This document shows positions 20,591 to 21,188 of a DNA stretch of 64,000 nt, one piece after another (within the stretch, counting starts at the first letter, position 1; the number at the start of each line of letters is the position of its first letter). The position numbers were made by a program, and so were the translations under genes. Source of the stretch: an uncultured bacterium (GTDB lineage: Bacteria; Desulfobacterota; Deferrimicrobia; J040); NCBI GenBank assembly GCA_964429585.1, contig CAYSCN010000001.1:49809-113808 (forward strand), in the 5' to 3' direction. The notes under the pieces were generated by a model. It saw nothing but the letters and a program-made list of their open reading frames with translations, did not search any database and was not told the origin of the DNA.

Positions 20591-20606
20591 TGGCATGGTT
20601 GGTGCA
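20591..20606 (+). promoter_or_regulatory. sigma54 promoter (cassette copy 1)
   Basis: TGGCAT-GGTTG-GTGCA, followed by SD and ATG 20639. Confidence 0.55.
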
Positions 20607-20638: not shown

Positions 20639-20806
20639 ATGTTGGGAGGATGGCTAGGACTGATAATCATAGGCGGGCTGATTTTCCTGATGTTCCGCGG
20701 AGGTGGTTGTTGCGGTGGAGGCGGTAAGGGTTCTGATGTCTCGGGGAGCTCTCACCACGGGGGCGTAACCTCCGATGGAAGCGGCTCGAAGAAAGGGTGT
20801 CATTGA
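20639..20806 (+). CDS. 55-aa single-TM Gly/His/Cys-rich protein (below the ORF-track cutoff)
   Basis: MLGGWLGLIIIGGLIFLMFRGGGCCGGGGKGSDVSGSSHHGGVTSDGSGSKKGCH; GGAGG SD; paralog at 50934-51116. Confidence 0.8.
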   Translation: MLGGWLGLIIIGGLIFLMFRGGGCCGGGGKGSDVSGSSHHGGVTSDGSGSKKGCH

Positions 20807-20847
20807 ATTCTTAAAATGGGGAGATCAAAAGCAAGGAGGTGATGGAA

Positions 20848-20901
20848 ATGAAGAGATTCATGGTTCCAAGAGTGGCACATTGCCAGGAAGGACACATCTG
20901 A
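20848..20901 (+). CDS. 17-aa micropeptide MKRFMVPRVAHCQEGHI
   Basis: GGAGGT SD 7 nt upstream; paralog at 50817-50897 differs mostly by synonymous changes. Confidence 0.65.
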   Translation: MKRFMVPRVAHCQEGHI

Positions 20902-20928
20902 GGTCCTGGACATGACCTAAAACTGTCC
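20901..20928 (+). ncRNA. Putative 28-nt H-type pseudoknot, copy 1
   Basis: AGGTC-CT-GGACA-T-GACCT-AAAAC-TGTCC; two 5-bp stems; 25/28 identical to 50810-50837. Confidence 0.5.
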
Positions 20929-20955: not shown

Positions 20956-20984
20956 TTGAAAGAAAATTTTAAGAAATATAGAAT
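20956..20984 (+). promoter_or_regulatory. sigma70-type promoter
   Basis: TTGAAA-17 nt-TAGAAT in an AT-rich stretch upstream of the 21000 gene. Confidence 0.55.
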
Positions 20985-20999
20985 AAAAAGGAGAAAACG

Positions 21000-21188
21000 A
21001 TGAACTGTCCGAAGTGCAATGGGCTTATGCTCTTCGAGAGGTTCGTTGACGGAACCGAGCATTTCTTCGGGTGGAGGTGTCTCCTCTGCGGCCTGATAGT
21101 CGACGAGGTGGTGCTGAAAAACAGGAGGGCGGAGCTCGGCAATCCAAATGAATTGAAAACAGTCGGAGCAAAAGGAGGTTTGAAATGA
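21000..21188 (+). CDS. Small zinc-ribbon-type protein
   Basis: 62 aa, CPKC...CLLCG; AGGAG SD; ATGA overlap with the next gene. Confidence 0.7.
   Translation: MNCPKCNGLMLFERFVDGTEHFFGWRCLLCGLIVDEVVLKNRRAELGNPNELKTVGAKGGLK

Follow-up and report, generated by a model that had tools for sequence, protein, structure and literature searches.

A 64,000-nt stretch of DNA from an uncultured bacterium of the Desulfobacterota (hereafter, the window) carries two very short, similar open reading frames (ORFs) that share a His/Cys motif, raising the question of whether frames of 17 and 26 codons are genes, and what their peptides might do together with the RNA structure that lies directly behind them. A preliminary description had placed these ORFs at 20848-20901 on the forward strand and 50817-50897 on the reverse strand, each with a GGAGG, which was borne out by our analysis: both copies carry this Shine-Dalgarno (SD) sequence 8 nt before the ATG, and the differences listed between them (the synonymous changes AGA/AGG, GTG/GTC, GCA/GCT and TGC/TGT, a Val/Ile swap and a variable Q/G residue) are all present. 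Judged by the conservation described below, the 17-aa ORF is a real, translated micro-gene of a conserved family, and more than 200 further loci from more than 15 phyla carry it. The features of the two copies are as follows.

20848..20901, + strand: micropeptide ORF copy 1, MKRFMVPRVAHCQEGHI followed by a stop, 17 aa; conserved core at residues 4-16, with His11, Cys12 and His16
20835..20839, + strand: Shine-Dalgarno GGAGG of copy 1, 8 nt before the ATG
20903..20928, + strand: H-type pseudoknot of copy 1, identified by homolog covariation; its stem S2 is also predicted by RNAalifold
50817..50897, - strand: micropeptide ORF copy 2, MTITRFMIPRVAHCGEGHQSRSRTRP followed by a stop, 26 aa; the stop UAA lies within pseudoknot loop 3
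50906..50910, - strand: Shine-Dalgarno GGAGG of copy 2, 8 nt before the ATG
50810..50835, - strand: H-type pseudoknot of copy 2, GUCCCGGACACGACCUUAAACUGUCC, beginning 8 nt past codon 16 (CAC, 50844-50846)

A micro-gene family with a His/Cys ligand site

Copy 1 reads ATG AAG AGA TTC ATG GTT CCA AGA GTG GCA CAT TGC CAG GAA GGA CAC ATC TGA, and a genome-wide search of the 2.34-Mb genome recovered two ORF copies only. An opposite-strand ORF at 20800-20913 (-) was rejected, as it is not conserved in copy 2. By scanning a degenerate back-translation of FM[VI]PRVAHC over a species-representative genome collection, we identified more than 118 loci, well beyond what chance would give, and the matches listed span Desulfobacterota, Actinomycetota, Patescibacteria, Methylomirabilota, Gemmatimonadota, Spirochaetota, Acidobacteriota and others. 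An independent scan, which used the downstream RNA motif alone, yielded about 100 new loci: in the frame ending 8 nt before this motif, His, Cys and Gly stand at the expected codons in 77, 81 and 80 of 101 loci, respectively. Across these RNA-anchored loci, orphan sites with a pseudoknot and no ORF included, the entropy of codon positions 1, 2 and 3 is 1.22, 1.27 and 1.74 bits. Codon periodicity is also seen outside the search pattern, with ATG-AAR-CGN before it and TGY-nnn-GAN-GGN-TGC/CAC after it, third positions carrying near zero information. The family core is [F/Y/W]-M-[ILV]-[P/R]-[R/P]-V-A-H-C-x-x-G-[C/H], and members also occur in Bacillota, Planctomycetota, Omnitrophota and Zixibacteria.

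The RNA-motif scan revealed two subtypes, MDIT[IV]KYMLRPVAHCKEGC in Planctomycetota, Omnitrophota and Margulisiibacteriota, and MLRKR[YW]MLR[AP]xAHCK[EG]GC in Bacillota and Geobacterales, the hosts of the latter including Desulforudis sp. Tu-874, Desulfofundulus thermosubterraneus DSM 16057, Neomoorella carbonis and Thermincola. A sequence logo was built from 168 unique ORF-pseudoknot copies anchored on codon 16 (position 0). It displays F/Y/W at -12 (167/168), M at -11, I/L/V/M at -10, P/R at -9, R/P/A at -8, V/I/T at -7, A at -6, H at -5, C at -4, E/D/S at -2, G at -1 and C/H at 0; conservation spans positions -14 to 0, and the length from the start to codon 16 varies from 14 to 22. A codon-conservation test on more homologs, which the preliminary description had proposed, speaks for coding: periodicity is present, every one of the 168 copies has an in-frame ATG, GTG or TTG start, and 166 of them have an SD-like motif, so that start and SD are retained rather than lost.

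In a sample of the window's phylum, the ORF together with its pseudoknot was found in 41 of 401 genomes and 35 of 254 genera, the reversed control pattern giving 0 hits; four of the seven genomes of the window's own family have the module, versus none of 34 in its sister family. The module is an accessory element of patchy distribution.

We next consider the end of the peptide, His-Cys-x-Glu-Gly-His in copy 1, which had been put forward as a plausible metal-binding site. Across the family it behaves as a ligand site, with a second Cys or His at residue 16 or 13 that is almost never absent and with metal genes in the surroundings. Residue 16 is Cys or His in 106 of the 119 peptide-anchored copies, and 11 of the 13 exceptions have Cys13 instead (AHCCGGS, AHCCEGA and similar; Fisher p=9e-13); one of the two remaining exceptions (L055) is a chance match inside a longer ORF. 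The replacement of a missing Cys/His16 by Cys13 indicates a three-ligand His/Cys site under selection, and the Met at -11 is nearly invariant. We infer that His11-Cys12 plus one further thiol or imidazole looks like a site for soft metals (Cu(I), Hg(II), Zn, Cd) or a redox-active one.

Profile hidden Markov model scans of 11 peptide variants against Pfam and NCBIfam gave no meaningful match, a tblastn search of PLSDB plasmids gave none, and a full-text literature search for the peptide strings, the RNA strings and the concepts found neither the peptide nor such a module described. The family is unannotated, and the module resembles a sensor peptide plus RNA structure yet fits none of the tested families.

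An H-type pseudoknot in register with the micro-ORF

The RNA motif behind the ORF has the consensus GUC-CY-GGGCA-n-GAC-nnnAAAC-UGCCC, a 26-nt H-type pseudoknot that follows an 8-nt linker of essentially random sequence. Covariation was tested on 95 peptide-anchored homologs (alignment A2), with stem S1 formed by columns 72-74 and 83-85 and stem S2 by columns 77-81 and 94-98. Overall, 90% of cells pair and 7/9 pairs show compensatory double changes; no shuffle out of 500 matched these values, and in slid controls the paired share drops to 26-43%. In S2, pair 78-97 is GC in 72 copies and AU in 21, and pair 79-96 is GC in 86 and AU in 8; in S1, pair 72-85 occurs as GC 89, AU 4, CG 1 and GU 1 times, and pair 73-84 has one UA-to-AU change. 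Double changes affect four S2 pairs and, in S1, pairs 72-85 and 73-84, these last two with at most one break. The stems are ordered S1a-S2a-S1b-S2b with compensatory changes in both, as in the H-type class. RNAalifold recovers S2 unaided and detected nothing convincing within the ORF. A81, G83 and the AAA of loop 3 are invariant.

Both window pseudoknots have the S2 variant GGACA/UGUCC and a 5-bp S1. In copy 1, S1 joins 20903-20905 to 20914-20916 and is extendable to 20901-20905 with 20914-20918, S2 joins 20908-20912 to 20924-20928, and the A-rich loop 3 occupies 20917-20923. Several further candidates were rejected: pair 71-86 as a general fourth S1 pair (unpaired in 59/95), further RNA structure within the ORF and an anti-pseudoknot helix joining codon 16 to S2a (neither shows covariation), and an intrinsic terminator (a direct U-tract in 22% of copies, versus about 12% in the background). 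The genome has one more pseudoknot-like match (contig C34:4498), which falls within a coding region where the ORF is missing; chance is the probable explanation for it.

The clear RNA structure of the 3' half, together with the lack of a protein family match, could be taken to mean that the 100-nt stretch encodes no peptide at all and is a non-coding RNA throughout, its 5' half being open by chance. This we hold to be extremely improbable, since the 5' half has strict three-base periodicity and no covarying base pairs, three subtypes keep the amino-acid pattern despite nucleotide divergence, start and SD are kept, and Cys13 and Cys16 covary.

The ORF and the pseudoknot stand in a nearly fixed register. 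A spacer of 8 nt separates the pseudoknot from codon 16 in 80/82 RNA-anchored and 91/~99 peptide-anchored loci; copy 1 is among the few with 7 nt, its pseudoknot beginning 7 nt past codon 16 (CAC, 20893-20895) and 1 nt past the UGA stop. Start-to-motif length varies (16, 17, 18 or 19 codons), but the distance from AHCxxGC to the pseudoknot is constant. Roughly a dozen copies with a stop at codon 17 also keep the 8-nt spacer, so that frame maintenance alone is insufficient as an explanation. The stop falls at codon 17 (22 copies), 19 (23), 21 (14), 23 (51, as the UGA in GCA-UGA-C) or 25 (55, as a UAA in loop 3), and 166 of 168 copies have an in-frame stop at or before codon 25. The loop nucleotide that makes this UAA is T in 55 of the 57 copies without an earlier stop, versus 65 of 111 otherwise (p=2.5e-8). 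The frame is accordingly read on into the structure, within which it has to terminate.

At about 20 loci (Patescibacteria, Geothermincolia and others) the pseudoknot is missing, and a very stable hairpin, GC-rich in some lineages and often a terminator, begins 4-8 nt past codon 16. Their nominal stop falls anywhere from codon 17 to 57, and at least three of the ORFs traverse both the hairpin and its U-tract. Taken together, a conserved peptide end at a fixed distance from a pseudoknot suggests, on this comparative evidence, a ribosome-coupled metal or thiol device.

Within the linker (A2 columns 64-71), UA is enriched at positions 3-4, with UAG in 42/168 copies, UAU in 20 and UAC in 9; the UAG would terminate the -1 frame.

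The same geometry, an H-type pseudoknot behind an 8-nt spacer, is known from frameshift and readthrough signals, and the pseudoknot might be imagined to drive selenocysteine insertion, stop readthrough or -1 frameshifting. The UGA directly before the structure in copy 1 and the -1 frame UAG at linker positions 3-5 in 42/168 copies would fit such recoding. We nevertheless judge it highly improbable: stop identity (UAA, UAG, UGA) and position (codon 17 to 25) vary, phage stops ahead of the same pseudoknot are mostly UAA, codons 14-16 (GAN GGN UGC/CAC) form no slippery heptamer, and nothing is conserved downstream of the pseudoknot in any frame, nor is there periodicity. A selenoprotein with a selenocysteine insertion sequence (SECIS), or UGA readthrough, was rejected, as stops vary and copy 2 has no UGA and needs a different frame.

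Known pseudoknot recoding signals (the E. coli copA -1 frameshift that gives CopA(Z), dnaX and murine leukaemia virus readthrough) resemble the module in having a compact H-type pseudoknot 5-9 nt after a defined codon and a short product that ends at or near the structure, and copA shares the copper-homeostasis context. They differ in that the micro-ORF is without a slippery sequence, a conserved leaky stop or a conserved second frame. The preQ1-I, SAM-II and guanidine-III riboswitches are likewise close in form, being similar in size to the 26 nt found here and sharing the H-type topology, the A-rich loop 3 and invariant nucleotides in the loops, but the pseudoknot described here has no Rfam match, has other stem lengths and conserved positions, and has no metabolite-linked gene association. 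The local resemblance to guanidine-III (GGACAAGAC) presumably involves a loop there and a covarying stem here.

Pseudoknots without the peptide and the metal loci around the module

The pseudoknot also occurs by itself. An ORF is missing at about 16 of 104 RNA-anchored genomic sites, and the 18 genomic orphans (L130, L137, L138, L145, L156, L160, L163, L165, L168, L176, L177, L184, L193, L196, L199, L216, L222 and L226) come from genomes of which 3/18 contain the ORF-pseudoknot module. In viral contigs of IMG/VR, the 26-mer pattern GUCCYGGGCAnGACnnnAAACUGCCC has at least 120 matches (L248-L367), and a micro-ORF stands beside 0 of the 120 listed. Among the matches listed, viral pseudoknots are co-oriented with their neighbours, the upstream gene being on the same strand in 59/73 cases and the downstream gene in 61/67, and the gap from the upstream stop to the pseudoknot peaks sharply at 6-8 nt (28/59), no gap being shorter than 6 nt. 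In many cases the next start codon comes 7-29 nt on, and a ribosome-binding site, promoter or tRNA gene often lies directly behind the pseudoknot, which is also found 3-6 nt before tRNA genes, and before promoters. It is present, unannotated, in cultured phages, namely Moorella phage MTATph1, Corynebacterium phages phi673/phi674, Cellulosimicrobium phage DS1, Nostoc phage NMeng1 and a microvirus (phage records L368-L370).

The possibility that the pseudoknot is the binding site of the peptide, defining a regulon, was rejected on these counts, with the module in 3/18 orphan genomes and the ORF at 0/120 listed phage pseudoknots. From its placement, the pseudoknot looks like a portable cistron-end or intercistronic RNA element, and where it stands alone it may act as a cistron-end stabiliser, an insulator or a ribosome barrier. 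The phage pseudoknots listed never overlap the upstream ORF, unlike that of the micro-ORF; with phage genes keeping a gap of at least 6 nt, overlap of ORF and pseudoknot appears as a special property of the micro-ORF. Ordinary genes look as if they hold the pseudoknot just beyond the footprint of a terminating ribosome, and only the micro-ORF would make the ribosome run into it.

An Rfam cmscan of the window copy and a consensus-type copy at E<=10 returned no family and noise only, and at the gathering threshold the 18 orphan loci gave only noise, tRNAs, and one Pistol and one SAM element elsewhere. The Pistol self-cleaving ribozyme, at L176 4572-4629 (-), scores 50 bits, above the gathering threshold, and lies about 650 nt from the orphan pseudoknot, which is consistent with a phage or mobile-element neighbourhood. 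Small genomes of the candidate phyla radiation (CPR) type (L156, L193, L199, L239, L247) have an orphan pseudoknot in a conserved, mobile-element-like neighbourhood: an 86-aa gene ends 7-9 nt ahead of it, a conserved gene of about 100 aa and a large serine recombinase are nearby, and a convergent gene of about 280 aa lies opposite. Tandem pseudoknots occur at L141 (two, 7 nt apart), L224 and L163 5800-5860, the second copies having covarying stems (GAUCC UAAGCA AGAUC ... UGCUU and GCC..GAGUA..GGC..UGCUU); at L163, the two precede an odd tRNA with an 8-nt anticodon loop.

To describe the gene surroundings of the micro-ORF across the family, Pfam matches were tallied for the nearest same-strand neighbours (148 proteins upstream, 146 downstream). 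Upstream neighbours include ArsR-type helix-turn-helix regulators (10), pyridine-nucleotide disulfide oxidoreductases (9, five with a MerA-like dimerisation domain), YHS (8), MarR (6), ArsP permeases (5), Metal_resist/CpxP-like proteins (5) and NifU (4); downstream neighbours include Rrf2 (12), Usp (4), hemerythrin (4), COX2/cupredoxin (4), HMA (3), DUF5676 (3) and DUF2933 (2). By this gene content, the family belongs to loci of Cu/Hg/thiol homeostasis. Planctomycetota and Omnitrophota have a YHS-ArsP permease or cysteine desulfurase gene first, then the micro-ORF, the pseudoknot and Rrf2, with only 8-46 nt from the pseudoknot to the Rrf2 start. The subtype MDITIKYMLRPVAHCKEGC with its pseudoknot stands 8-46 nt before the Rrf2 regulator (MKLITRDTDYALRA...), often behind the YHS-ArsP permease, in Planctomycetota, Omnitrophota and Margulisiibacteriota (Rrf2 loci: L127, L134, L142-L144, L162, L164, L174, L175, L204, L206, L208, L209 and L215). 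At L142, the Rrf2 ATG lies 8 nt past the pseudoknot and is without an SD, an arrangement that suggests translational coupling of Rrf2.

In Desulfofundulus thermosubterraneus DSM 16057 (L167 2120-2460), the order is csoR, micro-ORF (VLRKRYMLRPVAHCKGGC and stop), pseudoknot, intrinsic terminator, promoter and an 852-aa ORF, presumed to encode a CopA-type ATPase; the promoter is sigma70-like and contains ATACCCTACAGGGGTAT, a CsoR-type box. The micro-ORF here sits after csoR, in a slot often held by copZ. At many loci, a convergent gene or a new promoter lies behind the module.

Modification of the Cys residues after translation would make the peptide the precursor of a cofactor or of a ribosomally synthesised and post-translationally modified peptide (RiPP). 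A short Cys peptide with an invariant core resembles RiPP cores, and ICMT-type methyltransferases, Rce1-like proteases and one radical-SAM gene lie near some copies. The same tallies of 294 nearest neighbours, however, contain no recurrent maturase family, the peptide is without a leader/core architecture, it is present in tiny CPR genomes, and it has no RiPP-precursor match in NCBIfam or Pfam, which makes this explanation very unlikely.

In the window itself, alignment of the two regions revealed a larger duplicated cassette and not the ORF alone. Its order is a sigma54-like motif, a small transmembrane (TM) protein rich in Gly, Cys and His, a gap of 41-42 nt, the micro-ORF and the 26-nt block, the last being better conserved between the window copies than the micro-ORF.

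20639..20806, + strand: first gene of cassette 1, separated from the micro-ORF behind it by 41 nt; its small protein has a TM helix at the N-terminus and a tail rich in Gly, Cys and His that ends ...KKGCH
50934..51116, - strand: paralogous small TM and Gly/Cys/His-rich protein (MFGGWIWLIVIGGLIFLLFRRGGGGCGGHG...GSCH); first gene of cassette 2
20591..20606, + strand: sigma54-like -24/-12 motif TGGCATGGTTGGTGCA, upstream of cassette 1; a pattern match only
51153..51168, - strand: sigma54-like -24/-12 motif TGGCACGAACGATGCA, upstream of cassette 2; a pattern match only

In both cassettes, some 270-290 nt separate the sigma54-like motif, TGGCAY-N5-nTGCA, from the micro-ORF downstream of it, and the distance is equal in three family relatives (L121-L123), which suggests that each cassette is a sigma54-dependent transcription unit of its own. 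The window's own family keeps the whole cassette, from the sigma54-like motif and the small TM protein to the micro-ORF and the pseudoknot. The small TM protein of cassette 1, like its family, has no Pfam match, and its paralogs adjoin the micro-ORF in relatives and in other metagenome-assembled genomes. Members of this small-protein family (the window pair and those at L034, L051, L115, L122 and L123) have one TM helix (GGW..L.IGGL.FL) and a tail ending in KKGCH, KKSCH or GSCH, and YHS-domain proteins beside other micro-ORF copies end in ...PPCH or ...QKCH; the common C-terminal Cys-His motif may be meaningful.

Both window modules terminate their transcription units, which excludes a classical leader role here. 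Copy 1 lies downstream of a YHS-HMA CopA ATPase gene and is followed by a sigma70-like promoter (20956-20984) of the next gene. Behind this promoter, at 21000-21188 (+), comes a 62-aa zinc-ribbon protein (MNCPKCNGLMLFERF...CLLCG) without a Pfam match, a homolog of which follows the cassette in a family relative (L121). Copy 2 is directly downstream of a pair of genes for an HgcA-like protein (CdhD domain plus TM) and an HgcB-like ferredoxin, and a convergent cyclopropane-fatty-acid (CFA) synthase gene lies behind it. The pair lies at 51403-52768 (-); the HgcA-like gene encodes the CdhD domain with the cap-helix motif NVWCSAGKG and a C-terminal TM region, and its HgcB-like partner is a 2x[4Fe-4S] ferredoxin with a CC-rich end (...CGCSSSCCD). 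The two constitute a putative mercury-methylation pair with cassette 2 directly behind.

A candidate pause module and the free-peptide alternative

We tentatively favour, as the foremost of the readings considered, a cis-acting module in which nascent peptide and RNA roadblock would together pause the ribosome in response to soft metals or thiol status. The preliminary description had offered a ribosome-stalling sensor working with the RNA behind it, and the geometry makes this plausible, with a spacer fixed at 8 nt and stops inside the pseudoknot. Helicase activity of the ribosome lies at about +11 to +13, counted from the first nucleotide in the P site, so that with an 8-nt spacer the first pseudoknot pair would be opened as codon 16 moves into the P site. 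A translating ribosome would then meet the pseudoknot as codon 16 passes from the A site to the P site, at which point some 13-15 conserved residues would occupy the exit tunnel between the peptidyl-transferase centre and the constriction. The His-Cys...Cys/His of the nascent chain could make the length or outcome of the pause depend on a thiophilic metal or on thiol status. A ribosome that passes would melt the pseudoknot and terminate inside it, and a stalled one would leave it folded. Translation of the micro-ORF might in this way gate a generic cistron-end RNA element and hence the fate of the metal-operon mRNA, with 3'-end stability, termination or expression of the next cistron as candidate outputs.

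The pause model appears favoured by the fixed register, by stops that fall within the pseudoknot, and by tails that are dispensable and ORFs running across terminators. There is also one copy per metal transcription unit, and two in this genome, as expected of cis elements.

Several points weigh against such a module. It is the last element of its transcription unit in the window and at many other loci, with no downstream gene to regulate there, and it would be unusual for a 3' element to decide the fate of the mRNA upstream of it. Near-invariance across phyla, a strong SD of its own and the copZ slot after csoR would fit a trans-acting peptide as well. The parts are separable, the pseudoknot occurring without the peptide in phages and orphans and the peptide without the pseudoknot. 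Finally, a need to stay in frame with the stops that lie within the pseudoknot could account for part of the fixed spacing.

A more specific form of the pause module would make the nascent peptide itself the metal or thiol sensor: its motif would take up ions of the Cu(I)/Hg(II) type, or undergo oxidation, in the tunnel and, with the pseudoknot 8 nt on, switch the ribosome between pass-through and arrest, toggling the portable cistron-end pseudoknot. We regard this form as rather unlikely.

A free metallopeptide is a serious possibility that we would place a close second, with the 16-25-aa product serving as a mini-chaperone, a buffer or a ligand for Cu(I)/Hg(II)-type ions, working with the adjacent Cys/His-rich small proteins, YHS proteins or metalloregulators, and the pseudoknot reduced to generic punctuation. 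Covariation of the His/Cys/Cys(His) ligands would suit it, as would the Met at -11 and the aromatic residue at -12, a start and SD of its own, and a 3'-terminal operon position, including the slot after csoR that is usual for copZ. So would the small Gly/Cys/His-rich TM proteins with which it is paired, not in the window alone but also in relatives and other metagenome-assembled genomes, as well as a peptide conserved without the pseudoknot and a pseudoknot autonomous elsewhere. Left unexplained are the conserved end 8 nt before the pseudoknot and an ORF that enters it, where phage genes keep at least 6 nt. The tails are, moreover, variable and dispensable, some CPR (Patescibacteria) ORFs traverse the terminator and would give non-stop or long-tailed products, and no partner protein is conserved across loci. 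The RiPP-precursor, recoding and purely non-coding readings are largely excluded.

Comparison with known systems bears on both the pause module and the free peptide. Arrest peptides (TnaC, SecM, SpeFL and the Erm leaders) share with the micro-ORF a short frame, conservation of the C-terminal 12-16 residues only, a variable N-terminal length, an aromatic residue about 12 positions before the critical codon with Pro/Arg between, and an RNA structure immediately downstream whose folding is set by ribosome position. The conserved C-terminal stretch of about 10-17 residues, whatever the N-terminal length, is found here too; a position upstream of a controlled gene is absent in the window copies and seen only in subsets, such as the micro-ORF-pseudoknot-Rrf2 arrangement. 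The micro-ORF further differs in having no sequence similarity to arrest peptides and in being often 3'-terminal rather than a leader, and its putative stall would be set by the pseudoknot at a fixed distance and not by the peptide alone. To our knowledge, no arrest peptide has a metal or thiol ligand. As in pyrBI-type attenuators, the pseudoknot-less copies of CPR and Geothermincolia enter or traverse a terminator-like hairpin about 7 nt past codon 16; unlike in these attenuators, the peptide itself is conserved, regulatory codon runs are absent, and most copies have a pseudoknot without a U-tract. Small metal proteins (CopZ/HMA chaperones, MntS, SmtA and MymT) likewise adjoin metalloregulators and P-type ATPases and use Cys/His/Met ligands, but the micropeptide, at 16-25 aa, has neither an HMA fold nor MxCxxC/GMxCxxC, and its 3' end is embedded in a pseudoknot.

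Annotation has missed a peptide of 16 residues that hardly varies over many phyla and that sits within regulatory loci for copper, mercury (including hgcAB) and Fe-S/thiols. The module, or in the phages its pseudoknot, occurs in cultured systems, namely Desulfofundulus thermosubterraneus DSM 16057, Neomoorella carbonis, Desulforudis sp. Tu-874 and the Corynebacterium glutamicum phages phi673/phi674, which makes the question directly testable. Either way, the 26-nt pseudoknot is an undescribed RNA motif with hundreds of phage and cellular copies. If the module is a cis-acting sensor, translational control would gain soft metals or thiols as a new input and, as a new architecture, a peptide plus a fixed-distance pseudoknot, often at operon 3' ends. 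Should the nascent peptide itself sense metal, it would be the first ribosome-arrest sensor for a metal ion, and a new and very widespread punctuation element in the mRNAs of bacteria and phages would come to light with it. If the product is instead a free metallopeptide, it would be a missing metal-trafficking component of anaerobes, mercury methylators included.

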